A DNA stretch of 64,000 nucleotides from a virus. Lineage: Duplodnaviria > Heunggongvirae > Uroviricota > Caudoviricetes. Location: IMG/VR virus record IMGVR_UViG_3300042456_000759. One strand, 5' to 3'. This document shows, piece by piece, positions 1 to 64,000 of this stretch. Numbering within the stretch: position 1 is the first letter of the stretch; each line of letters opens with the position of its first letter. Made by a program: the position numbers and the translations under genes. Below the pieces are notes generated by a model. That model did no database searches. It was not told the DNA's origin and was given only the letters and a program-made list of their open reading frames with translations.

Positions 1-462
1 TATTTAAATTTATTTTACATTCATCACATAATAACTGTTTATTATTAAAACCAGTATCAATAATTTTACTACAAGAATAGCATAATGTTGCTCCATTACC
101 ACTATTAAATTTTTGTATTGGTATATTCAGTCTATACCTTGCTTCTTTTTCTGGTTCGATATTTGGAATTCCAGAAAATCTACCCCAGCTGTTATTACAA
201 TGATTACATTTATATAATAAACCACCATCATATAATCGAGAATACTCCATCAATGTAATATCATTCTGAAAATATACAGGTTTATTTTTATCATAACCAT
301 AACTTTCTGCTACTTTATATATATCTTCATCAGAATAATTTTTATAATAATCATACTGAGGATGATTTATATCAGTTTTAGCATTCATAAAATGTTCTAG
401 AATATCTTGTCTTTTTAATTCTTGATTACACTGAGGACATTTATTATAAATTATTTCATCTA
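1..462 (-). CDS. Cys-rich zinc-finger-like protein, partial (start ATG at 462-460, runs off window start)
   Basis: Manual reverse translation gives MIDEIIYNKCPQCNQ...KCNHCNN...CYSCSK...CDECK with no stop before the window edge. Several CxxC pairs. Confidence 0.45.
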
Positions 463-726
463 TCATATTAATAATAAAATTTTATTGTTTGAACTTTTTG
501 GGTATTTTTTATAAAATACATTAATATCTTCAAGATATAACACGTCATTCCAAAAATCAAATCCTTCTATAGTATCAGTCCAATTAAATCCTCCAGTGGT
601 TAAAGCCACTTGTATTTGATTAAGAAAAGGTTTAATATTTTTAGGATTACCTTGCTCCTTTTGTCTTTGGAGCATTAGCTCAATAACTTCAGGAGGATAT
701 ATTTGTCTAAATTTTTTTTCTGTCAT
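463..726 (-). CDS. hypothetical protein, paralog of 4156..4419
   Basis: ORF track. About 60% aa identity to ORF 4156..4419 with near-identical DNA stretches (ccagaagttattgagct[ag]atgctccaaagaca). C-terminal ILLLI tail. Confidence 0.6.
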   Translation of the reverse strand: MTEKKFRQIYPPEVIELMLQRQKEQGNPKNIKPFLNQIQVALTTGGFNWTDTIEGFDFWNDVLYLEDINVFYKKYPKSSNNKILLLI

Positions 727-1118
727 AGTTTAAATATTAATAATAAATCAGATTCTTTTATTTTAATTTTATTATTCTGGTTATCTTTGATAATACAATA
801 TCTTACATTATCTTTTATAGAAAAATAAGTATCTATAATATAATATTCTTTAGAAATTGTAAAATCTAATTCTTCTAAATAATATATATTATTTATACAT
901 ATTACTTTTTTATTAATATAATTATAAGTAGATTTTGATTTATAATTATATATAGTTATTAATCTTAAGATTAATAATACTGTTCCCATAGTAAACAAAA
1001 CTATGGATAATGTCAATAATCCTTCTACAGTTCTATTATCTAAATAAGAACAGAATAGAAGAAAAGCTAATCCAATAATTATAATGGAAATTAATATATC
1101 GTATTTATTTTTCATCAT
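723..1118 (-). CDS. hypothetical membrane protein
   Basis: ORF track. Two hydrophobic segments. ATGA start/stop overlap with upstream gene. Confidence 0.45.
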   Translation of the reverse strand: MMKNKYDILISIIIIGLAFLLFCSYLDNRTVEGLLTLSIVLFTMGTVLLILRLITIYNYKSKSTYNYINKKVICINNIYYLEELDFTISKEYYIIDTYFSIKDNVRYCIIKDNQNNKIKIKESDLLLIFKL

Positions 1119-1353
1119 CTAATAATAGTTTATATACATTAACAAAAAAACCCCATATTATAAATAGAGGCATACCGATAAAATATACTATTACAAATAA
1201 CAACATTCTAAAACTAAGAATATCATTTTCATTTTCTTCTGGTATTCTACGAAATAAAGATTTTCTATTAAATGCGTTTATAATCGTTATTATAAATAAT
1301 AATAAGTAAAAAAATAATAAGAAATCTCTTATAAATTGTAAAAAATGTGTCAT
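1105..1353 (-). CDS. hypothetical small membrane protein
   Basis: ORF track. Hydrophobic segments (FFYLLLFIITII, IVYFIGMPLFIIWGFF). Confidence 0.45.
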   Translation of the reverse strand: MTHFLQFIRDFLLFFYLLLFIITIINAFNRKSLFRRIPEENENDILSFRMLLFVIVYFIGMPLFIIWGFFVNVYKLLLDDEK

Positions 1354-1697
1354 AATATTAATAAGATTTGAGAAGTATTATTAAATTGTTTATTAAATTC
1401 ATATATTTCTTTAACTAACCAGTCTAAAATAGGAGTATTTGGATTATTAAATATAGGCCAAATTCCTTTAATTGCTTGATGACCATATAAAACTTCTAAC
1501 TTTTTAGTATAATTTTCTCTAGAGTTAAATAAATAAAGCAATATTTCATCATTTTCACCATTTATATTACAGACAAATTTGCTCAATTTTTCTAATAACA
1601 TTGATTTATCATCTACAATTAAATAAATTTTATTTTTCTCTATTCTTTCTATAATAATTTCTTTTTTCATTTTTAAGGTTTTTTGTGATCTCACCAT
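1350..1697 (-). CDS. hypothetical protein (true start probably the internal Met at about 1670, avoiding overlap with the tRNA)
   Basis: ORF track. The annotated N-terminus overlaps the 3' end of the tRNA at 1686-1757. MKKEIII is an alternative start. Confidence 0.5.
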   Translation of the reverse strand: MVRSQKTLKMKKEIIIERIEKNKIYLIVDDKSMLLEKLSKFVCNINGENDEILLYLFNSRENYTKKLEVLYGHQAIKGIWPIFNNPNTPILDWLVKEIYEFNKQFNNTSQILLIL

Positions 1698-1757
1698 GAT
1701 TCGAACATGGATTAACAGTTTAGAAAACTGTAGTTCTATCCCTTGAACTATGAGACC
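1686..1757 (-). tRNA. tRNA-Arg (anticodon TCT)
   Basis: Reverse complement folds as a canonical cloverleaf. Acceptor GGTCTCA/TGAGATC (one GU), D arm GTTC-AAGGGATA-GAAC, anticodon stem ACAGT/ACTGT with loop TTTCTAA, T arm CCATG-TTCGAAT-CATGG. Confidence 0.8.
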
Positions 1758-1764
1758 AAATAAA

Positions 1765-1800
1765 AAAAGAGAGTTAATATTTAATTAACCCTCTTTTTAA
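1765..1800 (-). terminator. hairpin plus T-run, candidate intrinsic terminator (T-runs on both sides, possibly bidirectional)
   Basis: agagagttaat-attt-aattaaccctct flanked by an A-run and a T-run. Lies just downstream of minus gene 1818..2363. Confidence 0.4.
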
Positions 1801-1817
1801 GTTATTTTACAATAATA

Positions 1818-2363
1818 TTATTGTAATAAACCAGAAGCGGATTTAATAATACGCTCCATAGCTCGTTTTTGCTTTTCTTCTTCTGAAAGGAATTGTTGCA
1901 TTTCTTTCAAGCTGTTTTCAACTTGTTCCAGACTTGCTTTATTTTTGATTTCAAAAGTTCTTTTAACAATTGCTGCATTAAACTCTTCAATAGATACATC
2001 ATTAATCTTAAATGGTTTAATTACTCCATTAAGTCCTAATTCTGAAACACTTTGATCAAATTTATTTTTTGCTTCTCTTGCAGCAGCATGTAAATAAACC
2101 AAATCAGTCAAAGTATCGATTTCCTGGATATTTTTTGAACTTAATTGAATATTAAAACAAATATCTGTTTTAACAGATTGATCTAAGTTACCTTTTAATT
2201 GATCTCGTAATTCTTCTAATTGTTTAATAGTTGTAGAAATCTTTGTTTTGTCAAGAGTTCCATCACTTTTAACAGGAAGTTCAATTTTTGGAGTTTCAAC
2301 TGTAGCTACTGCTTTAGAGTCAGCTATTGTAGTGCTTTTTGCACTTTTTTTTGGATTTGCCAT
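1818..2363 (-). CDS. hypothetical coiled-coil protein
   Basis: ORF track. Charged, heptad-like sequence. No recognisable catalytic motif. Confidence 0.5.
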   Translation of the reverse strand: MANPKKSAKSTTIADSKAVATVETPKIELPVKSDGTLDKTKISTTIKQLEELRDQLKGNLDQSVKTDICFNIQLSSKNIQEIDTLTDLVYLHAAAREAKNKFDQSVSELGLNGVIKPFKINDVSIEEFNAAIVKRTFEIKNKASLEQVENSLKEMQQFLSEEEKQKRAMERIIKSASGLLQ

Positions 2364-2430
2364 AATTTTTGTTTGTTTTTTTGATTGTTTATTGTATTTA
2401 TTAAATGATTTTTAAAAATTAAATTTATAA

Positions 2431-3426
2431 CTATTTAGAGTTATATAAAACAGAGGTATTTGTACCTAATATAGTACTTGGTACTCTTTCTACAGTAGAA
2501 GCAGCTCTTGTCCACTTAATATATTCTACATAAGTAGGTGTAATAACAGACTGTTCTTTTTGAATAGCAATAGCTCTACCAGATGCTGTAATAACAGCTT
2601 CTGCTGAGTCTCCTCTAGCTGTAGCCATTTTTTCTTGAGCTCTAGCTACAGCAGTTTGTCTATCTAATTCTGCTTGTTGTGCATTTTGAACAGCTTCTGC
2701 TTTTCTTTGTAATTGAGCAATCATAGATTTAGGAGGTCTTTGTCCAGTTTTAACTTGATCTATATCAAAATATTTACCTAATGATAATTTTAAATAATTT
2801 TCTACTGTTATTCTGTAATTATCAGCATTATTAAATATACTATCAGGAGTAAATAAATTTGTAGCATTTGTTATAGCTATATTTACAGCATTTTTAACAA
2901 ATTTATCATCAATATCACTTAAATCTTCACTTTTTGTTAAATGTGTATAAATATAAGGTAAAGCTGATTTTTTAACTGCCATATTTAAAGATGGTTTTAC
3001 AGGAATTAAAGTACCTCCTTTACAAGCTACTTCAAATTGATCAAATTCAATATGTCTAGTCTTCCTATCATATTCATTAACATCTGTAAGATAAGTGTTA
3101 TAAAAAACAACACCCTGACAATCTCTAACAATAGGAACACCTTTATTAGTTCCTAATCTATCTATTTTTAATCCATACGTATCACTTTTAATCCATTGAA
3201 CTCCTATTGGTCCTAATAACCAAATTAATAATGTAATACATAATGTTAAAATAGCTTTAGCTATTAATCGTGAGTTAGGGTTTTCATCTCCAATTTCATG
3301 ACGACTACATAAACCTTGTTCAAAGTCCTGTTGTGTATATGTTTTAACGTATTCATTAAATTTGAATATTCCTAATTGTTTTCCTATAATAAGTCCAATT
3401 ATTATAGCTAATAATAAATTAATCAT
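2431..3426 (-). CDS. SPFH/Band-7 (prohibitin/HflK-like) domain membrane protein
   Basis: N-terminal TM helix. C-terminal A/Q/E-rich helix QLQRKAEAVQNAQQAELDRQTAVARAQEKMATARGDSAEAVITASGRAIAIQKEQ typical of the SPFH coiled-coil region, preceded by a beta-rich SPFH-like core. Confidence 0.65.
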   Translation of the reverse strand: MINLLLAIIIGLIIGKQLGIFKFNEYVKTYTQQDFEQGLCSRHEIGDENPNSRLIAKAILTLCITLLIWLLGPIGVQWIKSDTYGLKIDRLGTNKGVPIVRDCQGVVFYNTYLTDVNEYDRKTRHIEFDQFEVACKGGTLIPVKPSLNMAVKKSALPYIYTHLTKSEDLSDIDDKFVKNAVNIAITNATNLFTPDSIFNNADNYRITVENYLKLSLGKYFDIDQVKTGQRPPKSMIAQLQRKAEAVQNAQQAELDRQTAVARAQEKMATARGDSAEAVITASGRAIAIQKEQSVITPTYVEYIKWTRAASTVERVPSTILGTNTSVLYNSK

Positions 3427-3449
3427 AATTTTGTTTGTTTTTTAATTGT

Positions 3450-3683
3450 TTAAATAAGTAATAAAATATTGTTTTTGATTTTTTCTTCTTTATAATGTGT
3501 TACTAATTCTTTAAAATTTTCTAAATAAACTTGTTTTGAAGGAATTATAAGTTGAGTATCTTGCTGTAAAGAAAAAGTGACATATTTAATGCCACTTTTA
3601 ATTACAGTTATTTTTATGTATGTATTGTTATAATAACATGTAAAAATATCTCCACTATAAACTCTATCTATTCTTTTTTTCAT
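3450..3683 (-). CDS. hypothetical protein
   Basis: ORF track. C-terminal NNILLLI tail shared with other genes in the block. Confidence 0.45.
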   Translation of the reverse strand: MKKRIDRVYSGDIFTCYYNNTYIKITVIKSGIKYVTFSLQQDTQLIIPSKQVYLENFKELVTHYKEEKIKNNILLLI

Positions 3684-3728
3684 TTATTCTAATTGTTGTA
3701 ATTCTTTCATATTTCTTGTTTTTTAAGT

Positions 3729-3887
3729 TTATAAATTCAGTATAGTATATATTAATAATGCTACTAATAAGCCAAGTCCAATAAACATAGCCAATGTAGA
3801 TGGTATATTTAATAAACTAAAAGCTATAAATAAAAGTATTACTAATAATACTACTGATAAAATAACCTTATTCTTTTTTGTTATCAT
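3729..3887 (-). CDS. small hydrophobic membrane peptide (52 aa)
   Basis: Manual translation MITKKNKVILSVVLLVILLFIAFSLLNIPSTLAMFIGLGLLVALLIYTILNL. ATG overlaps the TGA of the upstream gene (ATGA). Below the ORF-track length cutoff. Confidence 0.3.
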   Translation of the reverse strand: MITKKNKVILSVVLLVILLFIAFSLLNIPSTLAMFIGLGLLVALLIYTILNL

Positions 3888-4159
3888 AGTAATAATAGGG
3901 TTTTATTGTTTAATTCTTCTTCAAAAAACCAGGCTGGAAAATGTTGCTTTATATATTTGTGATCATTTGATAATTGATGATAACTCTCCCAAGATCCGTT
4001 AGTGTTAATATAATAAAATGTATCAGAACCCATTACAAATCTATTACTTATAAAATCTACTATTTCTTTTAATAATTTAACAGATTCATCACTTTTATCA
4101 TTATAAATTATTACTTTTCTTTGTCGAAGTAATTCAATTCTTTCTTTATTTAATTTCAT
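3884..4159 (-). CDS. hypothetical protein
   Basis: ORF track. C-terminal TLLLL tail. ATGA overlap with the next gene. Confidence 0.45.
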   Translation of the reverse strand: MKLNKERIELLRQRKVIIYNDKSDESVKLLKEIVDFISNRFVMGSDTFYYINTNGSWESYHQLSNDHKYIKQHFPAWFFEEELNNKTLLLL

Positions 4160-4419
4160 AATAATAATAAAATGTTTTTTAATTCTTTCTTTGGATATTG
4201 TTTATAAAAAACTTCAAACTGTTTATAATTTAATACTTTATCCCAAAAACACCAACCTTCAATAGTTCTTATCCAGTTAAATCCTCCTGAGATTGTACCT
4301 GTCATAATGTCTTTTAAAAAAGGTTGAATATTTCTAGGATTTCCTTGCTCCTCCTGTCTTTGGAGCATCAGCTCAATAACTTCAGGAGGATATATATCTC
4401 TAAATTCTTGTTCTGTCAT
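4156..4419 (-). CDS. hypothetical protein, paralog of 463..726
   Basis: ORF track. Shared IYPPEVIELMLQRQ.EQGNP.NI.PFL...GGFNW..TIEG..FW core with ORF 463..726. Confidence 0.6.
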   Translation of the reverse strand: MTEQEFRDIYPPEVIELMLQRQEEQGNPRNIQPFLKDIMTGTISGGFNWIRTIEGWCFWDKVLNYKQFEVFYKQYPKKELKNILLLL

Positions 4420-4423
4420 GATA

Positions 4424-4765
4424 TTAATTTATTAACATAAGATTTAATAATATCCAAGGATTTTCATCAATATATTTATTTAATTCTTCATTAGAATTAA
4501 ATCTTATAATATGTTTATCTCCTGAATTCATATGTATCTCAAGAATAGGTTTATCATAAACTATATTATTTTCAATAATATAGTTTGAAAAATTAGTTGT
4601 AGTCATAAGATCACAATCATGATATTTTAAATGTTCAGGTTCTACTTCTTGATATAAACCAAAAAAATAACGTTTTATTTTTTCAGGATGATAAATCCAG
4701 AAACTTTTTTGTTTATAAGATTTATAAACAATTGATATATTGTCTTTATTTATATATTTATCCAT
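4424..4765 (-). CDS. hypothetical protein
   Basis: ORF track. Confidence 0.5.
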   Translation of the reverse strand: MDKYINKDNISIVYKSYKQKSFWIYHPEKIKRYFFGLYQEVEPEHLKYHDCDLMTTTNFSNYIIENNIVYDKPILEIHMNSGDKHIIRFNSNEELNKYIDENPWILLNLMLIN

Positions 4766-4861
4766 ATTTATAGATTTATAAGTTATGTAAATGTTTTTTC
4801 ATATCTTTCATAATAACAAAGAATGTACTTGAATATTTCATTGTTGTTTAATTTTTTTAAT

Positions 4862-4936
4862 TAGTACGAGTAATAGGATTCGAACCTATGCTACCTCTTC
4901 CAGGATGAGGCGTACTACCATTATACTATACTCGAA
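4862..4936 (-). tRNA. tRNA, identity uncertain (anticodon loop TCCTGGA, possible CTG-Gln or CCT-Arg, with a 1:72 mismatch)
   Basis: GGATTCGAACC on the plus strand is the reverse complement of a T arm ATAGG-TTCGAAT-CCTAT. D stem GTAT/GTAC with an ATGGTA loop. Acceptor CGAGTA/TACTCG. Anticodon stem CCTC(A)/(A)GAGG has a terminal A-A mismatch and position 33 is C. Confidence 0.55.
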
Positions 4937-5314
4937 AATTTTTATAAGGAGTAGCATCGTTTCATGAAACGACACTCGGATGTAAGTTATACCATCCTAA
5001 TACTTCTTCTCTTTTTGCCAAACAGATATAAATCTAAAAGTTATAATCATGATTATAATAACTTTTAATATATCTTCATATATATAATTTATATCAATAT
5101 GAGAACCTTAAACTCATAGAAGAACATACAAATAAGGTTGTATGGATATCCTAGTTTTTAACCTAAAAACACAGAATACATATCAAGTATTCATTTTATA
5201 AAAGGGTTGATTTTATACTCTGCACTACCTTGTCTTTTTAATTGGACTTAAAGTATTTTATAGACTTTAAGAGACACAGGAGCCCCACAACTTGTTAGGT
5301 TTCCGCCATAATGG

Positions 5315-5404
5315 TAGTCAGGACAGGATTCGAACCTGTAAATTGTAAAGGGGTTACGACCTTACTAATTCTATTTTTGCGTCTACCAATTCCGCTACCT
5401 GACT
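5315..5404 (-). tRNA. class-II-like tRNA (Leu/Ser/Tyr-type D arm) with a non-canonical extended central hairpin; CCA encoded (5312-5314)
   Basis: Acceptor AGTCAGG/CCTGACT, D arm GCG-GAATTGGTAGA-CGC (identical to E. coli tRNA-Leu), T arm ACAGG-TTCGAAT-CCTGT. The central 39 nt forms an 11-bp hairpin with loop TCGTAAC rather than a 5-bp anticodon stem. Confidence 0.5.
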
Positions 5405-5558
5405 ATTATTAATCAATCATATCTGAATGAAACTGAAATGGATCTTCTAAATATATATGGTAATAATATTTTACATCATCATCCAATAACCCATCTAATT
5501 CAACAGAGTACTTATTTTTAAATTCTTCTAAAGTTAGCATTATCACGTAATATTTTAG

Positions 5559-5730
5559 TAGTCAGGACAGGATTCGAACCTGTATACTTATAGTTAAAAC
5601 TCTGTCGCTACATCAGGAGAGGTACATTCATACTTCACTGTAGTTGTCGGTATGCCAAAGAGTTAATCCCCGAACATGGACTATAAGCCTTCTCAACCAA
5701 GAGACGGTCTACCAATTCCGCCACCTGACT
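5559..5730 (-). ncRNA. tRNA-like gene, paralog of 5315-5404, with about 80-nt central insertion
   Basis: Identical 5' acceptor and D region (AGTCAGGTGGCGGAATTGGTAGAC) and identical 3' T arm and acceptor (ACAGGTTCGAATCCTGTCCTGACT) as 5315-5404. 172 nt in total. Confidence 0.4.
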
Positions 5731-5881
5731 ATATTATTTTTTATGTATTTAACAACACCCAAACAATTGATTACGTAAAATTCTACTATTAACCATCTTT
5801 TTAACTTAACCCACCAAGGGTCTTTTTTCATCTTATCCAGCATTCTCTGAACTGTTTTACTTCTCATATTAATATTTTTTG

Positions 5882-6107
5882 TAGTCAGGACAGGATTCGA
5901 ACCTGTAAATAAACACTTACCATCTTGGTTATTAACAGCTCCTACTCTGATTTCGGAGAGTTTGATAAGTCCCTAAACCACATCTGAGGATTTTTATTAT
6001 TCCAGAACTTTGGTTCTTGGTGGTGAAATCCGTTAGGCTTTTAATTAGGGGTCTACTTGTTTATTCCAATACTCAGCTATAGGCATTACCAGTTCTGCCA
6101 CCTGACT
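5882..6107 (-). ncRNA. tRNA-like gene, third paralog, with about 135-nt central insertion
   Basis: Same 24-nt 3' end (agtcaggacaggattcgaacctgt on plus) and the same acceptor 5' end AGTCAGGTGGCAGAACTGGTAATGCC. 226 nt in total. Confidence 0.4.
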
Positions 6108-6147
6108 GGATAACCCTCTCTATAAAAATAGAAAGGGTTTTTATAAT

Positions 6148-6726
6148 TTATTCCTTATTAGTTCTAAAAACTACATCAGTTTTATCAGACAATATAGGTC
6201 TATAAATTATTGGTTTTCTTCTTCCAACAACAAATTTAGAAGGAATTGTTAACAATAAACTATCATGTTCAAATTTTAATTGCTGTAATTCATTCTCAAT
6301 ATATGTAAAGTCATTACGTTTAGATTCAATTAAATTAATTAAATCATTATACATATCAAGAACCCTCGTATAAGTTATAGAAGGATTATTTTGTTGTACC
6401 CAATACCACATTAATTCTTTATTAGGACTTTGATTAGACATTTGAATTAACATAATATTAGCAAAACCTGTATCAGCAAATTTAATTACATTATATTTTT
6501 CTAATACAGTTTTATACATATTTTGATATGTAGTTTTTCTTTTTTCTTCTGTACGATAAAAACGTTGTTTTATCATAACTTCTTGATTTACAACACTAAT
6601 TGTAAATCTCGTTATTACAAATAATGTATAAATTAAACAAATTAAAGCAATTATTCGTAATAAGATAAATAAATATTTTTTCATTGAGATGTTTTTAAAA
6701 ATGTGAATATGAGAATTAATTTTCAT
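6148..6726 (-). CDS. hypothetical membrane-anchored protein
   Basis: ORF track. N-terminal TM segment LFILLRIIALICLIYTLFVI. Confidence 0.5.
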   Translation of the reverse strand: MKINSHIHIFKNISMKKYLFILLRIIALICLIYTLFVITRFTISVVNQEVMIKQRFYRTEEKRKTTYQNMYKTVLEKYNVIKFADTGFANIMLIQMSNQSPNKELMWYWVQQNNPSITYTRVLDMYNDLINLIESKRNDFTYIENELQQLKFEHDSLLLTIPSKFVVGRRKPIIYRPILSDKTDVVFRTNKE

Positions 6727-7468
6727 TGTATAGTTTTTTAAAAGATTTATTATAATCTATTTGATTAATCATTGTAAGAAATAAAAATATCATAAAAATA
6801 ACTACTCCTACAAAACTAACTGCTAATATAAAACTAGGTTTAGATAATACTAATAATGAAGCTAAACTAATTGCTATTAAAATATAAGTTAATATACAAC
6901 TAAATATAGATTTAGTTAAGAATCCAATTATTGCGTTAAATTTATTATAAGAATTTCCTCTTTCTATAACGTAAAATTTCTCATTATAATAAAATAATAA
7001 TGTAGGATTTTTAATAAAACATCCATTATTAAAATGTAACGCATCATCATAAATCCGAGCAATAAAGTTACCTTTATCTGACTCTTTTGTAAAAAGTAAA
7101 AAAGGATTAAAAGGATATAAAAAGAACATATTATTTTTGATTTCATATTCAGAAGAAATAATAGATGCTTTTTCATCTTCTAAAAATGCAGTTAATTTCT
7201 TTAAATAGTCCTTATTATAAGATCCTTTATAATAGTTGGATTTAACTAAAACCAAGTTAAATCTTTTCATTTCTTGCTGTAATTCATAAGCAGATAAAGC
7301 TTTAATATTAGTTTTATCTGTCATATTCTGAGCATCTTTAATATCAGCACATATCTTCCGATTTTTAGAAACCTTAGAATTAGGAGCTGCTAAATCTAAT
7401 AAACTTAATGCTTTTTTTAATTCAGGGTCTTCTAATAACTTTACGTCATTTATAAGTTTTTCATTCAT
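6716..7468 (-). CDS. hypothetical membrane protein
   Basis: ORF track. C-terminal multi-TM region. Confidence 0.5.
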   Translation of the reverse strand: MNEKLINDVKLLEDPELKKALSLLDLAAPNSKVSKNRKICADIKDAQNMTDKTNIKALSAYELQQEMKRFNLVLVKSNYYKGSYNKDYLKKLTAFLEDEKASIISSEYEIKNNMFFLYPFNPFLLFTKESDKGNFIARIYDDALHFNNGCFIKNPTLLFYYNEKFYVIERGNSYNKFNAIIGFLTKSIFSCILTYILIAISLASLLVLSKPSFILAVSFVGVVIFMIFLFLTMINQIDYNKSFKKLYNEN

Positions 7469-7479
7469 TTTTTTTTATT

Positions 7480-7719
7480 TTAAGTGAGTTTTTGAAAACG
7501 ATAACTATCAATTTCAATTATTCCTTGAGGAATAGACACAGTATATGTTATACTGTTTTTATACTTTAAAATATTACCAAAGTATTCTTCTTCTTTAATT
7601 AATTCCCCTTCAATTGTTTCATTTTCATTAAATGATATTAATTCAGAAAATATAGAAGTTTCACTAGATGAAATTGATACTATGGTAGATTTTAAAGCTT
7701 TAAATTGCGTTAATGTCAT
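7480..7719 (-). CDS. hypothetical protein
   Basis: ORF track. Confidence 0.4.
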   Translation of the reverse strand: MTLTQFKALKSTIVSISSSETSIFSELISFNENETIEGELIKEEEYFGNILKYKNSITYTVSIPQGIIEIDSYRFQKLT

Positions 7720-7725
7720 TATATA

Positions 7726-8154
7726 TTAAGAATTTAAATATGTATAAGCTTGACAATAAAGTTCTAATCTATCGAATGTCTTTTTAGAAAGGTTTTTAAG
7801 TCTTGTAATTTTAGAATTATGTTCTAAATCAGCCAATTTAATAGCTTTAGCTATTGGATTATAAGCTAATTTTTTAATATAATCCATATAAACTTCTTCA
7901 GGTTTATGAGTTAATAATTGTAAAATAGTGATTATTTCTAAAGAAAAACCTTGATCTAACAAATATTGTTCTGTATAACCTCCTGCATATTTATCTTCAA
8001 ATAAATCATGTAATACTCCGCAAATCATTGCTGTTTCTCCTAAATGACTTACTTTATTCATTACATATAATAAATGTAATATATAAGGTTTATTTCCTTT
8101 ATCGTATGTATGTTCGAATGCTTCTGAGGCAATTTTAATAGCTGTAGCTAACAT
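7726..8154 (-). CDS. HD-domain small alarmone hydrolase-like protein ((p)ppGpp hydrolase, SpoT/Mesh1-like HD fold)
   Basis: Motifs in SpoT-HD order and spacing: His pair (EHTYDKGNKPYILH), HD dyad (CGVLHDLFEDKY), and KLADLEHNSKITRL, which matches the SpoT/RelA KLADRLHNMRTL helix. Confidence 0.6.
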   Translation of the reverse strand: MLATAIKIASEAFEHTYDKGNKPYILHLLYVMNKVSHLGETAMICGVLHDLFEDKYAGGYTEQYLLDQGFSLEIITILQLLTHKPEEVYMDYIKKLAYNPIAKAIKLADLEHNSKITRLKNLSKKTFDRLELYCQAYTYLNS

Positions 8155-8182
8155 ATTTTATATTTTTAAAGTGAAAAAAATT

Positions 8183-16994: not shown

Positions 16995-17032
16995 CTAGTT
17001 TACCAACTTGAAAGTTAAAACTCCTCCCTAAC

Positions 17033-17434
17033 TTAATAGGAAGGAGCTGAATCAAAAGCACGTTTCATGTCAAGTTCTCTCAACCTTTCCTCTCTTTCAT
17101 TGTGTTCTTTGAGAAAATCAATTAAAGACTGCTGATTATTAGCATTTATCCTGTCTTCAATAGTTTTGAGTACATAAGGACAAGCATTATCAATCCAATC
17201 ACTTCTGTCAAATTTACCTTTAATAACCTTATGGTTATAAAAGCAAGGATCAACAAACTCAGGACACATGAGACAATTGTCTAGACTGTGGCTATCAATA
17301 GTTTTACCTGAAGATGTATGAACTAACAAAAGCTCATATCTAATACCGTTGTCAAAGACTTCAATATGGTAAGAACTTGCACCTTTGTTAAATATGTAAT
17401 CCATAGGATCTAACTTTTGAAATGTAGTAGTCAT
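17033..17434 (-). CDS. hypothetical Cys-rich protein
   Basis: ORF track. CLMCPEFVDPCF...ACPY. Confidence 0.45.
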   Translation of the reverse strand: MTTTFQKLDPMDYIFNKGASSYHIEVFDNGIRYELLLVHTSSGKTIDSHSLDNCLMCPEFVDPCFYNHKVIKGKFDRSDWIDNACPYVLKTIEDRINANNQQSLIDFLKEHNEREERLRELDMKRAFDSAPSY

Positions 17435-17831
17435 AATTAATTTGTTTTTGAGTTTTAATTTAATAATTATCCAATAATACTAATAGTACTAAATGGAACA
17501 GCTTGTCTAAAAGTAGGAAAATCCACATATAACATACGTGAACTATTTAACCCTGATTTACAATCATTGTAGTCTTCAATACTACAAGTTCCTTCAAGAT
17601 TGTGATAAGAACAATATACTTTGTACATAATATATATCAATTTTATAGAGTTTTATTCTCTTTTTGAGTTTATAATGCAAAGCTATCTTATTAGCCCCAA
17701 CTTTTTTCCCATATCCTTTAAAATCAATGCTTTACAAAGATTGTAAAAAGAATATGTAGGGAAATAGACACTTAATCATCTCTTTGTTTTACAAAGTACT
17801 TTGAAATTCAAAGTGTATAAGTGCTTGATTA

Positions 17832-18020
17832 TCAGTTAGTTGTAAGGATTTTTACTTTAAGATTTTGTAGATTCCAGAGATTTACGAGGTGATTAAGGAA
17901 ATGTTGTTCGATTTTAATATCATATTCAACTTTTTCAGGAGATTTAATTATGACATAATTATCTCCATTTAATTGTTGTACTACAATATCATATTCAGGA
18001 TGTAAATTAGGCTTATTCAT
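17832..18020 (-). CDS. hypothetical small protein
   Basis: ORF track. Confidence 0.35.
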   Translation of the reverse strand: MNKPNLHPEYDIVVQQLNGDNYVIIKSPEKVEYDIKIEQHFLNHLVNLWNLQNLKVKILTTN

Positions 18021-18265
18021 GATGAAATATTGGTTTTTTTATGAGAAATATGTTCAAATATTTGGTATATATTAAAATATATCATATCTTATATTATAAT
18101 ATAAGAGATAATAAATATAATATTCTCAAAAATGACCCTCAGCAGGATGCTTTACGAAGAAGGGTGTATAAAACTGCTGTTAGATTATTTATCACTATCA
18201 TATGTTATAATCAATATATCCTTAATCGTACCAGTAGATCCTTATATCTCTGGATTTTTAGTTTG

Positions 18266-18339
18266 TGGACATTACAGGAATTGAACCTGTGACCTTCTGA
18301 TTATGAGTCAGACGCTCTAACCAACTGAGCTAAATGTCC
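18266..18339 (-). tRNA. tRNA-Met (anticodon CAT; could also be a lysidine-modified Ile2)
   Basis: Canonical cloverleaf: GGACATT-TA-GCTC-AGTTGGTTA-GAGC-G-TCTGA-CTCATAA-TCAGA-AGGTC-ACAGG-TTCAATT-CCTGT-AATGTCC-A. Confidence 0.85.
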
Positions 18340-18412
18340 TACACGAATGAACAATAACTTTAATACATTATTATAAGTTATATGCCCACCCACCCACCAC
18401 CTTGGTATATAA

Positions 18413-18440
18413 AAAAAGGGCCGAAGCCCTTCTTTTATGA
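18413..18440 (-). terminator. GC-rich hairpin flanked by A- and T-runs (bidirectional intrinsic terminator)
   Basis: aaaaaaagggc-cgaa-gcccttctttt, immediately after the stop of 18435..18917. Confidence 0.6.
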
Positions 18441-18917
18441 AAACGCACCTACAACAGGTTGTTGTACTAAGTTGGTTGGTGCAGTTCTTTGAGCGGTTCC
18501 TTCAGAGCGTGCAATTGCAGCATTCTTAGCTTGCTGCATGTAGAGTCCTAACAACTCTTCCTTAGTAACACCTTTAGTTTTGGCAATGGCTGTTGCTTTT
18601 TGGATTAATGTAGCACTCCTTTCCAATGCAGTTTCTATGCGTTGCTCATAACGTACGTTATTCAACGCTTTAGTAGCACCTGCTACCTGATACATTGGAA
18701 ATCCCGTAATTTGGTCATTTCCCGCATAAATTGGCTCAATTTCTTTGCCTTTCAGAGCGGCTGCTGCTGTTTCCGTAGCTGCTAATAATACACGTACCAA
18801 AGGTTTCTTAGCATCAACCACTACATGATGGTTTTCTGCTAAATTGGTTGGAAAATCAGCTGTTGGTTCAGCAAATCCGTAGCGTCCCTTTACAAGGGTA
18901 ATTTTTAACTTACTCAT
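18435..18917 (-). CDS. hypothetical Ala/Lys-rich protein with atypical (GC-richer) codon usage
   Basis: ORF track. Local GC is about 40% against about 29% genome-wide. Uses cgc/cgt/ctc/gcc codons that are rare elsewhere in the window. Confidence 0.6.
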   Translation of the reverse strand: MSKLKITLVKGRYGFAEPTADFPTNLAENHHVVVDAKKPLVRVLLAATETAAAALKGKEIEPIYAGNDQITGFPMYQVAGATKALNNVRYEQRIETALERSATLIQKATAIAKTKGVTKEELLGLYMQQAKNAAIARSEGTAQRTAPTNLVQQPVVGAFS

Positions 18918-19194
18918 TTTTTTACGTTTTAATTTGTTTTTAATATGGCGCTTAGTTATATGGGGGTAACCCGCTCACCAATTCAACAATGGGGCTAAAT
19001 TTTGGGTCGGACCCTATGTATTCTAGATATTACAGTTTTTATATATTACAGTTTTTTTATTATAGAAAAGGGGGAGGGGGGTATTATATAGATATTAGAT
19101 TTGATGGGGGGGTATAAATACATAAAAAATAATTTTAAAAGTTAAAAAGTAGTTAAATATATATTACAATTTATATATAGTGATTAAATGGGGT

Positions 19195-19202
19195 TAACTT
19201 TG
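19195..19202 (+). promoter_or_regulatory. candidate Bacteroidetes-type -7 promoter box (TAnnTTTG) upstream of the GroES-like gene
   Basis: TAACTTTG lies 22 nt upstream of ATG 19224. No clear -33 TTG is seen. Confidence 0.3.
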
Positions 19203-19223
19203 TATTATAAAATAGTATAATAT

Positions 19224-19514
19224 ATGGAATTTAAGAAAGTAAAGGGTAGGGTTTTATTAGTTGAGGAACCTCCTAAGGATTTAGTAAGTGCTGGTGGTAT
19301 AATTATACCTGATGGAGCTGAGTCTAGTGTTGAGATGATTAAGAATTGGTTATGTTTAGTAGTTGGTGTAGGGGATAGTTGTCATGAGGATTATGAGGTT
19401 GGTCAGGTTGTAGTAATAGATCCTAGTTTACAGTATGTAGGATATACGGATCCTGATAATAAGCGTAGTAGGATGTTTATTCCACAGGACAGGGTATTAG
19501 CAATTTATAAATAA
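19224..19514 (+). CDS. GroES-like co-chaperonin (Hsp10 family)
   Basis: KGRVLLVEE...SAGGIIIPDGAE (mobile loop), VVGVGD, VGQVVVIDP, DRVLAIY. About 96 aa, colinear with GroES and T4 gp31-type proteins. Confidence 0.75.
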   Translation: MEFKKVKGRVLLVEEPPKDLVSAGGIIIPDGAESSVEMIKNWLCLVVGVGDSCHEDYEVGQVVVIDPSLQYVGYTDPDNKRSRMFIPQDRVLAIYK

Positions 19515-19528
19515 ATAAAATAATAAAT

Positions 19529-19807
19529 ATGGAAGATCAAAAAGTAGGACCTAGTCCTGAGCAGTTAAAGATGATGCGTTCTAATTATGTACGAACAATG
19601 AAGGATGATGTACAGATTTTAGAGTTAGAGCAACGATTTTGGAAGGCTAAGTATGAGTCATTGTTATACAAGAGTGAGCATGCTAAGTTAGAGGGGATTA
19701 TTAGTCAGCAATTAAGTGAGATGGAGGCTATGACAGCTCAGATGCAAGATGAGGTATTAAATGCTCAAGAAAAAAGTGATAATGTAGGAGAAGATGTTAG
19801 TAATTAA
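19529..19807 (+). CDS. hypothetical coiled-coil protein
   Basis: ORF track. Confidence 0.45.
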   Translation: MEDQKVGPSPEQLKMMRSNYVRTMKDDVQILELEQRFWKAKYESLLYKSEHAKLEGIISQQLSEMEAMTAQMQDEVLNAQEKSDNVGEDVSN

Positions 19808-22418: not shown

Positions 22419-22691
22419 ATGAATAAATTACTTATATTATCAAAAAAGTCATGTGGACCATGTCAAGCATTAAAAATGTTTATTAATACTTTAAATGATG
22501 AATGTCAAGAAAAGGTTAAAATAATTAGTGATGAGACAGTTACATTAAATGAATTATATGAAGAAATGAAAAAAGTTGAAAGTTATGCTTTTCCTACTTT
22601 AGTATTAATCAGTGATGATTCTAGTAAAATAGTTAACGGTTTTGGTGCACAAACAGCATTATTAATTAAAAATCATTTATCATGCTTTTAA
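22419..22691 (+). CDS. thioredoxin/glutaredoxin-like protein (CGPC active site)
   Basis: KKSCGPCQALK, 90 aa. Confidence 0.55.
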   Translation: MNKLLILSKKSCGPCQALKMFINTLNDECQEKVKIISDETVTLNELYEEMKKVESYAFPTLVLISDDSSKIVNGFGAQTALLIKNHLSCF

Positions 22692-23053
22692 TTAGAACAA
22701 CAACAGGAAAATCATTAATCCACGGTTATGGGTTATATGCTGCTGAGTATATAGAAAAAGGTAGACCTATTTGGTTTAAATCAGATAAAGATATTGAGAT
22801 TCCTATGTCTCAAATTCCATATGAATATAGAGAATATTTGGATAGATATGCTACAGTAGAAAAGAAAGGGTTAGAACAAATTTATAATTTAGATTGTGAT
22901 GACGCTAAGTTTATAAATCATTCAGAAGATCCTAATATTGTTTTTATTGGGAATATAGGTATTGCTATTTCTGATATAGAAATAAATGAAGAAATCATTT
23001 GTGATTATAGAACTATTACAACACCAGAACACTTTGAATTATTAATGCTATGA
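22682..23053 (+). CDS. SET-domain protein (putative lysine methyltransferase)
   Basis: GYGLYAAEYIEKGRPI (GxG / SET-N), FINHSEDPN (NHSxxPN), EIICDY (ExxxDY post-SET), 123 aa. Confidence 0.55.
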   Translation: MLLIRTTTGKSLIHGYGLYAAEYIEKGRPIWFKSDKDIEIPMSQIPYEYREYLDRYATVEKKGLEQIYNLDCDDAKFINHSEDPNIVFIGNIGIAISDIEINEEIICDYRTITTPEHFELLML

Positions 23054-49017: not shown

Positions 49018-49233
49018 ATGAAAGATAATGTAAATCATCCACCTCATTACAATCAAGGGATTGAAGTAATAGATTATATAGAATCATGGGGATTAGATTC
49101 TGATGCTTATTTGTTCAATGTTATTAAGTATATAACCAGGGCAAAGTTTAAAAACAATGAACTAGAGGACTTAAAAAAAGCAAGATGGTATTTAGATAGA
49201 AAAATTCAAAACTTAGAATCAAATGCAAAATAG
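49018..49233 (+). CDS. DUF3310-like phage protein
   Basis: N-terminal VNHPPHYNQGIEVIDYI matches the DUF3310 NHP.HY...GIE.ID signature. Confidence 0.5.
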   Translation: MKDNVNHPPHYNQGIEVIDYIESWGLDSDAYLFNVIKYITRAKFKNNELEDLKKARWYLDRKIQNLESNAK

Positions 49234-49894
49234 TGTCGAATTAATAGGTTATTATGGTTCTGATATAACTCATGCTCAATCTGCTTGGACTTCTACTGTC
49301 AGAGATTTATCTGAAGAGAAATTAAATAGAGTTGATAAATTATTAGCTTCATTAGCAGAAGCTGGACATCATACTCCCTTTGAAAAGTCCAGTTTACATT
49401 TTTTAGTTAATGTAGATCAAGCAACTCATATTCATTTATTAAAACATCGTATTTCTGTTTCTATAAATGGAGAAAGTGCTCGTTATAAAGAATTAAAAGA
49501 AGACAAATTTTATCTTCCTGTAGATTGGATTAATATTAAATATCAAGGATCAGATACAGAACGGATTGAAGGTATAGGTAATAAAGATTGGTATAGAATT
49601 TTAGAAGATTATACAAAGATGGGAAATGTATTATATCATCAAGCTATAAAAGATCTTACCCCAATATTAGGTAAAAAAAGAGCAAAGGAATCTGCTAGAT
49701 TCTTTAAAACAATTAATTCTCAGATAACATTAGATATAATGTTTAATTGGAGAAGTTTTGTTCATTTTTTAAGATTACGAAACGATGAAGCTGCTCAATT
49801 AGAAGTAAGAGAATTAGCTAAGACTATGTTAGATTTAGTTAAAAATATTGAAGGAAATCCTTTTCAACATACAATAAATGCTTTCAAATTATGA
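49223..49894 (+). CDS. thyX: flavin-dependent thymidylate synthase ThyX
   Basis: ThyX signature KHRISVSINGESARY (RHR.7-8S.RY-type), 223 aa. Confidence 0.75.
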   Translation: MQNSVELIGYYGSDITHAQSAWTSTVRDLSEEKLNRVDKLLASLAEAGHHTPFEKSSLHFLVNVDQATHIHLLKHRISVSINGESARYKELKEDKFYLPVDWINIKYQGSDTERIEGIGNKDWYRILEDYTKMGNVLYHQAIKDLTPILGKKRAKESARFFKTINSQITLDIMFNWRSFVHFLRLRNDEAAQLEVRELAKTMLDLVKNIEGNPFQHTINAFKL

Positions 49895-50559
49895 AACCTG
49901 CAAATAGAGAAAGAAAAAATGAAATAAAAGCTATAAACGCTGTTCAATTAAATGATGAGCAAAAAGAAGCAAAACGTTTAATTATTGAAAATCAAATTGT
50001 AATAGTTACAGGTAGAAGTGGGTCAGGTAAATCGTTAGTATGTGCTAATGTAGCTTTAGATTTTCTAAAGAAAAAACAAGTAGAATGCATTTATAATACT
50101 AGAGCTGTAATTGAAGTAGGTAAAACTTTAGGTTTTTTACCTGGAGGACTAGATGAGAAATTCGATCCTTATATGGAAGCAATTATTGAAAATTTAAATA
50201 AATGTTGCACCGATAAGACTGAAGTTACTAGATTAATTGAGCAAGGTAAAATTAAGGCTTTAATTCCTCAATATATTAGAGGAAAAACAATGAATGATAT
50301 TTTAATTGTTGAAGAAAGTCAAAACTTAACTTCTCATGAAATGTTAGCAATTGTTACTCGTTTAGGTAAAGAAGGAAAAATTGTCATAAATGGAGATAAT
50401 GATCAACAAGATATTAAAACTCCAGATGGTTCTATGAACGGTTTAACATATATGATTAACATGTCAAAAGTGATTCCTGAGATTCAACATATTCATTTAA
50501 AAGAAAATCATAGAAGTGATTTAGTCGGAAAGATATTAGATTATGCATACAATAGATAA
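49891..50559 (+). CDS. phoH: PhoH-like ATPase
   Basis: Walker A GRSGSGKS, FLPGGLDEKFDPYMEAI, Walker B/PhoH block ILIVEESQNLTSHEMLAIVTRLGKEGKIVINGDNDQQD. Confidence 0.8.
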   Translation: MKPANRERKNEIKAINAVQLNDEQKEAKRLIIENQIVIVTGRSGSGKSLVCANVALDFLKKKQVECIYNTRAVIEVGKTLGFLPGGLDEKFDPYMEAIIENLNKCCTDKTEVTRLIEQGKIKALIPQYIRGKTMNDILIVEESQNLTSHEMLAIVTRLGKEGKIVINGDNDQQDIKTPDGSMNGLTYMINMSKVIPEIQHIHLKENHRSDLVGKILDYAYNR

Positions 50560-63200: not shown

Positions 63201-64000
63201 GTTGGCTCAATACTAAATAAAAGATATTATAACTATAAAAAACCAGTAGAACCAGTAGTATATAAACCACAATCGTCTGTCAATAAATCAAAACAATCAG
63301 TAAACGCAAATAGAACCGAAGTAATGAAGAAGCCGATAATACCAAATTTAAGCGAAGAATATCAGTATAAAAAATGGAAAGAAAGATATGGTATAGAAGA
63401 TGAGATACTGGACAGACTTCCTATGCTCCCATATTTAACAGAAGATTCTGATATCACAATGAATAGCGGTCAATTTAAGGTTCCTGCACCCGTAGTTCAG
63501 CAACCAAAAGGAAGACCTGTATATGGTCCTGGTAACACTATTATCGGATACAATAATAATATGCACTTTACTCCTGCGTTACAATATACAGGTGCACCAA
63601 ATAACGCATCTAATTTGCAGGATAAAGCTTTACTTGAGAACCCTGACGCGTTGCGTCAATACGTTTCAAAATTGGATAATTATAGATTTGATAAGGGAGG
63701 AGTATATAGTCAAGCATTAAACAATACAATTAATGGATTAAATCAATTATCTTATTTTTCTAAGAATTCTCCTGACAACGCTATGAGAGATTATTATATG
63801 AATATGTCTAATTATGATTCTAATAATAAAGATTTATATTCAACTAATCAAGACTTATATGGTAATACTTATTTTGATGAGGGAGGTTCTTATGAAGAAT
63901 TATCAAATGAATATAATGATCTTAGTGAATTACAAGCTATAGCTAGTATGGATGGAGACAATGAGTTATATGAATATCTTGCTCCTCAAATAAGTTCAGT
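60228..64000 (+). CDS. second giant protein, partial (more than 1257 aa, continues past the window end)
   Basis: Manual translation from ATG 60228, which overlaps the upstream stop by 1 nt (TAATG), shows no stop codon to the window end. Absent from the ORF track only because it is unterminated. Confidence 0.5.
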   Translation, partial: MIRKLKKYQQGGSFRDQLFPENKPVVDQGNFSKVKYTPAQKAAMQNANLVRKNEEKKKLQDEIAARQSKEKGTPYKLPTGVTKKYKDMTLKERAYVDAQSLRNKGRWNENQVEQPFLNTFNPITMLYDMAAGLGEAPLTSDVSNSYMPYVTGVVAPLAVGAFAGIGAKTTGQFVNNLVNPLADIVNAKKIKDYQEGFKRVLPEKQYLIGEFSGNKFKELKKLALSLSPNTTQALGKLDANIAKEMLNDYRFGEYSTVKDFRRTVKKALLESERLKKINPNVDFSRDLGIQSWMLKKPENLKNFADAQLMMDKSLSSQKKFLNYIEDEYNKKINLINNYDVFKNIAEESPQYTDLIYDHLKNPQVPDNIFLDNLVKQSNTFIRAVKNPLNNKNKFFNISGRSITKSGKNTMDVEGFPVSNIYGDYRYKIEPDAEKMAEIASAPLEEKWSKRFLDNSNISNDNINLEDGWLTQKSEDYSNWFKKRRQRNNQVKNVPMIVDQPMNIPQKYLNYPQHKIFTSDLNEQVLKGFDLSELNISNKDAYKYLPGFTRGFKKGGIIQDDRGQWAHPGQVTQIGSPNITMRGVNYPVLGVGADGQEIMMQPGGDYTFNQAPVTEYPMMQGGGGFISNLKKAYVDAYNNYNSRTFPAETLPQRQKAYRTINPSSYLDLRNYGRWVSDKQRDESYDPRSEEAFKFYLGLSKPEDLQYIRKSQYRPTINATDKYYYAVDPELEQDIFNAYKDKVKLNETLQTDESEFETALSGKGAAGLLGRFGVSKGHDENGDYLSYYDRYDLKDFAQKRTKGVPYSIYNRIYYPKKEQGGEMINYKSGGQMIKRADGSYSRPGLWDNIRKNAGSGKKPTAQMLEQERKIRNKYQEGGSTKQNPPKEYTDYKAFKKAERLYKDSLNLYNNNLNYKNKYLDFVNKAGFDKTKVEEWPTDGYVNTEQHPTIGAISNGVLKNSGGGFRRDSKGNPIYFNYFPLKNGKELKVYTDSFVGSILNKRYYNYKKPVEPVVYKPQSSVNKSKQSVNANRTEVMKKPIIPNLSEEYQYKKWKERYGIEDEILDRLPMLPYLTEDSDITMNSGQFKVPAPVVQQPKGRPVYGPGNTIIGYNNNMHFTPALQYTGAPNNASNLQDKALLENPDALRQYVSKLDNYRFDKGGVYSQALNNTINGLNQLSYFSKNSPDNAMRDYYMNMSNYDSNNKDLYSTNQDLYGNTYFDEGGSYEELSNEYNDLSELQAIASMDGDNELYEYLAPQISS

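Follow-up and report, generated by a model that had tools for sequence, protein, structure and literature searches.

We identified, in 64,000 nucleotides of phage DNA (IMG/VR record IMGVR_UViG_3300042456_000759, analysed as a whole and referred to here as the window), a gene for a 142-aa hydrolase of the RelA/SpoT (RSH) superfamily that has an intact active site, is under purifying selection and has no recognisable partner gene within the 64 kb. Our reading, to which we give a probability of roughly 60%, is that the protein is an active metal-dependent adenosine-3'-pyrophosphohydrolase of the Aph1/PbcSpo family that detoxifies the products of RSH toxins and is encoded as a stand-alone enzyme by a lytic crAss-like phage. 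We infer the substrate preference from the retention of D18 and R118 and from the properties of characterised relatives, and the biological role from the genomic context. The gene and the codons of its two principal motifs are located as follows.

7726..8154, minus strand: alarmone hydrolase gene, an ORF running from ATG to TAA and encoding 142 aa (putatively Aph1/PbcSpo-type; HD domain, RSH superfamily)
8005..8010, minus strand: codons CAT GAT of the metal-binding dyad H49-D50, read on the DNA, with E53-D54 next
7816..7839, minus strand: codons AAA TTG GCT GAT TTA GAA CAT AAT of the helix K106-L-A-D109-L-E-H-N113, read on the DNA

The original prediction had proposed a phage-encoded, stand-alone HD hydrolase of 142 aa belonging to the RelA/SpoT/Mesh1 superfamily, and the ORF is found exactly at 7726..8154; the strand, which is minus, was absent from that prediction. 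The translation of the ORF is MLATAIKIASEAFEHTYDKGNKPYILHLLYVMNKVSHLGETAMICGVLHDLFEDKYAGG...KAIKLADLEHNSKITRLKNLSKKTFDRLELYCQAYTYLNS, and its ATG matches the start of nearly all homologs in a 38-sequence alignment. H27 lies within PYILH, H49-D50 and E53-D54 lie within LHDLFED, and KLADLEHN comprises residues 106-113, of which D109 is the fourth metal ligand and N113 is the counterpart of Aph1 N114, a residue that contacts ribose (PMC10083569). It had also been predicted that the His pair, the HD dyad and KLADLEHN occur in the order and spacing of RSH hydrolases, and this was borne out, since the residues are present, their codons were confirmed and they align to the hydrolase domains of Rel enzymes.

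Homology searches returned 331 homologs at E<=1e-5 in a word-indexed database, the best at 2.5e-84 with 96% identity, and an exhaustive search returned 8,642 representative clusters at E<=1e-3, with 2,242 at E<=1e-10. H27, H49-D50, E53-D54 and the KLADLEHN motif residues were invariant in the 38-sequence alignment. Residues were tallied in 120 close homologs and in 106 wider single-domain representatives: H27, D50, K106 and D109 were invariant in both sets, H49 was present in 119 of the 120 close homologs and in all of the wider representatives, N113 was invariant in the close set and kept in 104/106 of the wider one, and E53 and D54 were retained by nearly all homologs. Comparison with the closest relative, L005, gave a dN/dS of 0.15 (11 synonymous and 7 non-synonymous differences). 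Given the numbers of homologs and clusters, the invariance of the motif residues and this dN/dS value, the motif is far beyond chance, and the gene is real and under purifying selection.

With regard to family, the Pfam HD_4 model scored 15.7 bits, under its gathering cutoff of 27.2, and TIGR00691 (spoT_relA), a model of long RSHs, gave 20.3 bits (E 1.4e-4) against a cutoff of 499. Since many homologs at 55-65% identity do have precomputed PF13328 hits, the sub-threshold HD_4 score reflects limited sensitivity of that model for a short clade. PHROG 990, 'metal-dependent phosphohydrolase', was matched at 5.9e-41. The best sequence match in the PDB was 7smg, '(p)ppApp hydrolase' (Aph1), with an E of 7.5e-22 over query residues 2-141 and chain residues 8-142; the hydrolase domains of Rel, RelA and SAH enzymes appeared in the same search at only 1e-4 to 5e-2. 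When a profile of 79 family members was searched against the PDB, Aph1 was matched at 8.6e-42 and the next match, Rel enzymes, at 4.3e-12. An AlphaFold2 model built on the 79-member alignment had a mean pLDDT of 95.7 and a pTM of 0.90, and a Foldseek search of the PDB with this model placed four 7SMG chains first (TMq 0.87-0.90, TMt up to 0.91, rmsd 1.5-1.9 A, 38% identity); the superposition of the predicted model on 7smg_A covered 141 columns at 1.5 A, with TMq 0.90 and TMt 0.91. Next came Mesh1, the Pseudomonas aeruginosa SAH, Corynebacterium glutamicum RelH, Rel and SpoT, with TMq of ~0.75 and TMt of ~0.6 or lower, and the long RSH enzymes had a TMt of about 0.2-0.35. The top 34 Foldseek matches in the PDB were all Aph1, Mesh1, SAH, Rel, RelA or SpoT, and the first HD proteins from outside the RSH group stood at ranks 35-37 (2pjq, E 0.57; YpgQ, E 0.7-1.1 and TM 0.5). 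Membership of another HD subfamily, such as the dNTPases or the cyclic-nucleotide phosphodiesterases, was ruled out, with only RSH hydrolases near the top by both sequence and fold. An HD subfamily of another kind had been named beforehand as the outcome that would count against the original prediction, and the PDB sequence, profile and Foldseek searches all returned RSH hydrolases instead. The 142-aa protein is thus a bona fide hydrolase of the RelA/SpoT superfamily.

Within the superfamily, the closest known system comes from Bacteroides caccae: it is Aph1 (PDB 7SMG), with which the family of (p)ppApp-specific hydrolases was founded (Ahmad et al. 2023, PMC10083569). The two phage-encoded proteins are alike in length (142 vs ~143 aa), are 38-40% identical over the full length, share an all-helical HD fold (TM 0.90) and the same metal and catalytic residues, and have equivalent residues at D24, N114, R119 and Y134 of Aph1. 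Aph enzymes have been told from (p)ppGpp hydrolases by a search with the C-terminal 53 residues, Y90-E143 (PMC10083569). When residues 89-142 of the window protein were searched alone, 7smg was the only match in the whole PDB (E 1.5e-9, aligned to 90-142), and no other RSH hydrolase was found there at E<=10. The Aph1 protomer lacks helix 0 and the C-terminal helix 9 of other SAHs (PMC10083569), and such a compact helical protomer fits the window protein, whose model spans Aph1 end to end and only ~60% of the longer SAHs. Mesh1, PaSAH (6YVC), C. glutamicum RelH, RelSeq and SpoT share the HD fold, the metal site and HDxxED with the window protein; however, they exceed it in length by about 30-40 residues and possess an additional C-terminal helix, superpose with a TMt of only ~0.6, are 17-25% identical, carry basic residues at the D18 position and are not detectably similar to its C-terminal 54 residues.

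A six-residue signature of Aph enzymes has been defined (D24, R96, D116, R119, K133 and Y134; PMC10083569). Since D24-K25-A26 can be read in the 7smg alignment, the PDB chain numbering is the Aph1 numbering, and the signature residues and N114 map onto the window protein as follows, with counts from the 120 close homologs and the 106 wider representatives.

Aph1 D24, window protein D18: essentially invariant in both sets
Aph1 R119, window protein R118: essentially invariant in both sets
Aph1 Y134, window protein Y133: essentially invariant in both sets
Aph1 R96, window protein K95: soft in both sets, R in only 39/106 wider representatives; a conservative change
Aph1 D116, window protein K115: K in 97/120 close homologs; D commonest among the wider representatives, yet in only 59/106
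Aph1 K133, window protein L132: L in only 3/120 close homologs; K in 92/106 wider representatives
Aph1 N114, window protein N113

D116 and R96 are accordingly soft positions, D being present in only 59 and R in only 39 of the 106, whereas L132 is a real departure, the equivalent of K133 being K in 92 of them. The two departures that lie near the active site, K115 (typical of its clade) and L132 (unusual), may alter rate or specificity; rates for the single mutants D116R and K133E are absent from the text of the Aph1 paper (PMC10083569). Given that the C-terminal region matches Aph1, that both validated specificity residues are kept and that the fold is compact, we assign the window protein, on sequence and predicted structure, to the Aph1 family. 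The label '(p)ppGpp-hydrolase-like' of the original prediction thus held for the superfamily and is sharpened here to a probable (p)ppApp hydrolase of the Aph1/PbcSpo type, with Aph1 as the closest relative and the equivalents of D24 and R119 retained.

These residues bear directly on the rival reading that the protein is a (p)ppGpp hydrolase that collapses the host stringent response and so keeps transcription and translation going. The Rel, SpoT and Mesh1 hydrolases belong to the same superfamily and use the same active-site chemistry, the departures K115 and L132 from the Aph1 signature are close to the active site, and a 2026 preprint reports that the stringent response can restrict phage. 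Many homologs are, moreover, annotated as 'guanosine-3',5'-bis(diphosphate) 3'-pyrophosphohydrolase', the other usual annotation being 'metal-dependent phosphohydrolase', but these are automatic names and not assays. When Aph homologs from different clusters were assayed, 12/12 hydrolysed ppApp and 2/12 had modest ppGpp activity, and Aph1 itself gained ppGpp activity only when both specificity residues were mutated (D24R+R119A; PMC10083569); both are invariant here. In addition, the position of the (p)ppGpp-contacting Arg-Arg of TtRel is occupied by D18-K19, and the diagnostic C-terminal region matches Aph1 alone in the PDB. We therefore consider a (p)ppGpp hydrolase unlikely. The original prediction had listed both the stringent response and toxSAS/CapRel-type or ppApp-producing abortive-infection systems as possible targets; given the ppApp activity of the Aph1 family and the retention of the D24 and R119 equivalents, the ppApp/toxSAS part of that list is favoured over the stringent-response part.

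Two further systems are informative with respect to the toxins that an Aph1/PbcSpo-type enzyme could counteract. Salmonella phage PVP-SE1 encodes gp220, which is ~40% identical to the window protein over residues 2-140 (E 2e-17) and is the sole homolog found in that genome. The PVP-SE1 SAH has been classed as PbcSpo and neutralised five of five toxSAS, i.e., CapRel, PhRel2, FaRel2, PhRel and FaRel (Jimmy et al. 2020, PMC7229694); gp220, as the only homolog found in the genome, is presumably this SAH, which serves as the functional model for the reading adopted here. Like the window protein, gp220 is a stand-alone SAH of a lytic phage with no adjacent toxin. It differs in its annotated length of 169 aa, which includes extensions at both termini, in the enterobacterial host of its phage and in keeping D at the Aph1 D116 position (NSDVRRL in gp220 vs NSKITRL in the window protein). 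The identity of ~40% to gp220 is indirect evidence for a PbcSpo affiliation of the window protein. [quoted passage not shown] 2021, bioRxiv 10.1101/2021.04.30.441581). ATfaRel and Mesh1 reverse this pyrophosphorylation, and ATfaRel restores aminoacylation (bioRxiv 10.1101/2021.04.30.441581). ATfaRel, likened to the window protein by description and not by sequence, belongs to the SAH subfamily of the PVP-SE1 enzyme and performs the chemistry proposed here, degrading (pp)pApp and removing the 3'-pyrophosphate from the tRNA CCA end, whereas it is the antitoxin of a conserved TA operon that adjoins its toxin and the window gene is without such a partner.

In the mechanism that we propose, a divalent metal (Mg2+ or Mn2+) would be held by H27, H49-D50 and D109, catalysis would be carried out by E53-D54, and a pocket formed by D18 and R118 (Aph1 D24 and R119) with N113 and Y133 would prefer adenine over guanine. 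Mutation of the HD motif abolishes the protection conferred by Aph1 (PMC10083569). The enzyme would remove the 3'-pyrophosphate from (p)ppApp and regenerate ADP or ATP, with little activity on (p)ppGpp. It might also cleave 3'-pyrophosphorylated tRNA CCA ends, since (pp)pApp and tRNA-A76-3'-PP are both adenosine 3'-pyrophosphates and one adenine-tuned enzyme could plausibly handle both. The phage would make this hydrolase without a toxin partner, and the infected cell would thereby stay productive if, in the course of infection, an RSH-type toxin of the host or of a competitor were activated or introduced. Candidate toxins are the toxSAS/CapRel-like abortive-infection effectors of the host, prophage MuF-Apk2 toxins and secreted effectors of the Apk1/Tas1 kind. 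Such a counter-defence role is consistent with the published neutralisation of toxSAS by the PVP-SE1 SAH (PMC7229694); a demonstration that a phage SAH acts as a counter-defence in an actual infection was not found in the literature examined.

We also examined the phage and the surroundings of the gene. The 64-kb window is phage DNA with a GC content of 28.4%, and a rightward block that starts at ~19.5 kb carries the genes for TerL, portal, the major capsid protein, ThyX, PhoH, crAss tail-ring proteins 1 and 2 and a crAss muzzle protein of 1,532 aa. Given the crAss ring and muzzle genes, a TerL that is only ~27% identical to that of any cultured crAss-like phage and the lack of nucleotide-level relatives among cultured phages in a megablast search, the window represents a divergent crAss-like lineage. 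Searching the literature for crAss-like phages with alarmone hydrolases returned nothing relevant. The hydrolase gene itself belongs to a leftward block (1-19 kb), which holds tRNAs and small ORFan genes and is divergent from the rightward virion block; this position would suit an early or accessory region, and the early-gene block of the original prediction is plausible. PHROG and Pfam gave no meaningful match for the genes that flank it, and the downstream gene starts 6 nt past its stop. At the right end, a giant ORF that begins at 60231 and has no recognisable Pfam domains runs off the window; stop-codon recoding, considered for the segment 60229-64000 (taken as free of ORFs) and for an ARAGORN 'tRNA-Stop', was ruled out, frame +2 being open to the window end.

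Upstream of the gene the following element was found.

8174..8220, minus strand: two adjacent hairpins, ATCTG-AGTTTA-CAGAT and then GGATAGTA-GG-TACTATCC, followed by a run of seven T; terminator-like, about 20 nt upstream of the ATG

A terminator scan of 6000-9600 gave 3 sites against 0.6 expected. The hairpin block is identical in L005, while the remainder of the intergenic spacer has diverged, and this predicted terminator-like element separates the hydrolase gene from the upstream ORF. Given its conservation, the hydrolase gene may head its own transcription unit or be under read-through control. A scan for sigma-70 promoters was uninformative, with fewer sites than in shuffled sequences.

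Partner genes were sought with Pfam in window ORFs of at least 50 aa on the coding strands, the giant right-end ORF included and TerL, portal, the major capsid protein and four small virion-block ORFs set aside; the ORFs were run as concatenated pseudo-proteins, and no RelA_SpoT synthetase or MuF domain was found at E<=0.01. Nor was either domain found in nine large proteins (six from the virion/cargo block and three from the early region) of Leptolyngbya phage Lbo-JY46, a distant crAss-like relative with a complete genome of 125 kb, which encodes its portal, TerL, ring and muzzle proteins in the same order as the window phage, at 20-27% identity. A toxin partner with a recognisable domain was thus rejected for the ORFs scanned; a divergent synthetase, or one encoded in the remainder of the genome, might still exist. 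The ORFs of the minus-strand block (1..19600) were compared by blastp with seven related loci, and full synteny was seen only with L005, whose HD protein is 96% identical. The more distant loci L001, L006/L007 and L008 (62-71% identity) have different immediate neighbours and share with the block nothing but the HD gene and a weak Band_7 match. A conserved operon partner was likewise ruled out, no neighbour being kept beyond L005. Given that no synthetase or MuF partner was found and that the neighbours are not conserved, the gene encodes, within the 64-kb window, a stand-alone hydrolase, as in lytic enterobacterial phages, in agreement with the observation that just 0.4% of aph genes are located close to MuF genes (PMC10083569).

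The distribution of homologs in cultured phages was determined by tblastn, which found them in 267 records that include Aeromonas, Streptococcus, Klebsiella, Escherichia, Cronobacter, Vibrio and Salmonella phages; they are common among strictly lytic phages, e.g., the Vequintavirinae and Aeromonas myoviruses. Since no crAss or Bacteroides phage group was among the ten most frequent organism names in this tally, the hydrolase looks like an accessory and not a core crAss gene. Homologs more than 60% identical lie on contigs of 85-136 kb, sizes typical of crAss-like phages. The HD proteins of the window phage and Lbo-JY46 are 68% identical, whereas portal, TerL and muzzle are only 26-27% identical, which points either to an unusually strong constraint on the enzyme or to gene transfer between crAss-like lineages later than their divergence.

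These data also bear on the reading that the hydrolase serves as the immunity component of a toxin-immunity pair borne by the phage, which would carry or inject an alarmone-synthetase toxin while shielding its own infection. This is exactly the role of the founder: Aph1, a homotetramer, is the immunity enzyme against the MuF-Apk2 (p)ppApp synthetase of a Bacteroides temperate phage (PMC10083569). It differs from the window protein in that it is encoded in a three-gene MuF-Apk2/Tis1/Aph1 toxin-immunity cluster, while the window gene is an orphan in 64 kb, and in the changes D116 to K115, K133 to L132 and R96 to K95. In favour of an immunity pair, the window covers 64 kb and only part of the genome, crAss-like virions eject large cargo proteins, and no domains are recognisable in the giant ORF that begins at 60231 and continues past the window end. 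However, neither RelA_SpoT nor MuF domains turned up in the scanned window ORFs or the nine Lbo-JY46 proteins, the ORFan neighbours do not travel with the HD gene in L001, L006 or L008, proximity of aph to MuF is rare in general and homologs abound in strictly lytic phages, so that an immunity pair appears very improbable. A role not in conflict but in the general metabolism of nucleotides or cofactors, with another 3'-phosphorylated substrate (NADPH, PAPS, pGpp or another nucleotide), is suggested by the promiscuity of RSH hydrolases (Mesh1 is an NADPH phosphatase and binds PAPS, according to PDB titles and bioRxiv 10.1101/2021.04.30.441581), by ThyX and PhoH in the window and by the NAD-salvage-type genes PncB and PrsA 6 kb from the Lbo-JY46 copy, but has a slim chance at best, since Aph1 is far closer than Mesh1 (TM 0.90 vs 0.77 and E 5e-9 vs 3e-4 in Foldseek), the conserved D18, R118 and Y133 are the Aph signature and no conserved linkage to metabolic genes is seen in the window.

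A more speculative extension of the adenosine-3'-pyrophosphohydrolase reading, which we regard as a long shot, is that the K115/L132 clade on large crAss-like genomes is an Aph variant retargeted to 3'-pyrophosphorylated tRNA, or to another adenosine-3'-pyrophosphate, made by an undescribed RSH-toxin abortive-infection system of the host, presumably a member of the Bacteroidota; toxSAS TA modules have been described mainly outside that phylum (PMC7229694). If this were true, the contrast between 68% identity for the hydrolase and ~27% for the core virion proteins would mean that an anti-defence gene has recently spread by horizontal transfer among crAss-like phages.

Published work already covers the family, with its structure, chemistry, specificity determinants and occurrence in phages, as well as the neutralisation of toxSAS by a phage homolog, and the present finding thus adds breadth and not a new principle. 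Its main value is that it extends the Aph1 family to divergent crAss-like phages, and it provides a natural K115/L132 active-site variant with which the specificity of Aph enzymes can be probed. If the role proposed here is right, divergent crAss-like phages would share an alarmone-hydrolase tool with enterobacterial, Aeromonas and Streptococcus phages, and this would be a hint that (p)ppApp-producing or tRNA-pyrophosphorylating toxins matter in the ecology of their hosts.

The leftward accessory block (minus strand, approximately 1-19 kb, small ORFan genes and tRNAs) and other parts of the window carry the following features.

463-726 and 4156-4419 (both -): 87-aa paralog pair, 3.4 kb between them
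2431-3426 (-), 22682-23053 (+) and 49223-50559 (+): accessory genes, including those for SPFH/Band_7, SET-domain and thioredoxin-like proteins, ThyX and PhoH
5315-5404 (-): fifth tRNA-like gene of the window (Rfam, 42.6 bits; missed by ARAGORN)
9547-10341 and 11173-11706 (both -): neighbouring genes with a common internal module
13983-14060 (-): 78-nt 'tRNA-Stop', anticodon TTA (ARAGORN call)
60231-64000 (+): giant ORF directly 3' of the muzzle gene

The two 87-aa paralogs follow the pattern MTE.. F R.IYPPEVIELMLQRQ.EQGNP... and both match part (~55-60 aa, 35-39% identity) of a 345-aa protein encoded in L008 (10426-11463), a related locus in which the corresponding gene lies directly 3' of the HD gene, which encodes the small alarmone hydrolase, and overlaps it. 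This tie between the paralogs and the hydrolase may be a coincidence. Translation of the neighbouring pair revealed the module IKEGDWV...KKIILTTDQDLIKDGVQAID.EFLEWFVKNPSCE.V, near-identical in both genes, which looks like a duplicated domain within the accessory block. In the related loci L001 and L006, the SPFH/Band_7 protein of the window showed weak conservation close to the HD gene.

The tRNA-like gene at 13983-14060 scored 41.9 bits against the Rfam tRNA model; its identity as a suppressor is doubtful, since visual inspection gives just a 5-nt loop enclosed by the anticodon stem (t30-c34 / g40-a44). No stop-codon recoding was seen in the window on the basis of stop usage in the 52 ORFs of at least 100 aa, TAA being the most frequent stop (38 ORFs) and the long ORFs being intact. 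The gene at 5315-5404 could be a tRNA with an intron or a long variable arm, given that a 33-nt insert takes the place of its 17-nt anticodon arm.

The giant ORF has at least 1,256 codons with no stop and continues beyond the window end. A Pfam search of the part inside the window returned no match, and the ORF probably encodes a large crAss cargo or virion protein. The equivalent region of the Leptolyngbya phage Lbo-JY46 (PP438436.1, whole genome, 125 kb, 32% GC; handles L009-L011) encodes a protein of 2,748 aa that carries a GNAT acetyltransferase domain at its N-terminus.

The portal, TerL, tail-ring and muzzle homologs of Lbo-JY46 showed 20-27% identity to those of the window, with matching gene order, and by sequence Lbo-JY46 is a distant crAss-like phage. 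Its database-recorded host is cyanobacterial, which would be out of the ordinary for a crAss-like phage; whether this host is correct, or a Bacteroidota contaminant was present in the culture, deserves a check. The HD protein of the window phage (7726-8154) is 68% identical to its Lbo-JY46 counterpart (L001, 6001-6429), whereas the core virion proteins of both phages are only ~26-27% identical. This difference suggests that the accessory HD gene has been exchanged horizontally among crAss-like lineages, or else that it is under unusually strong constraint.
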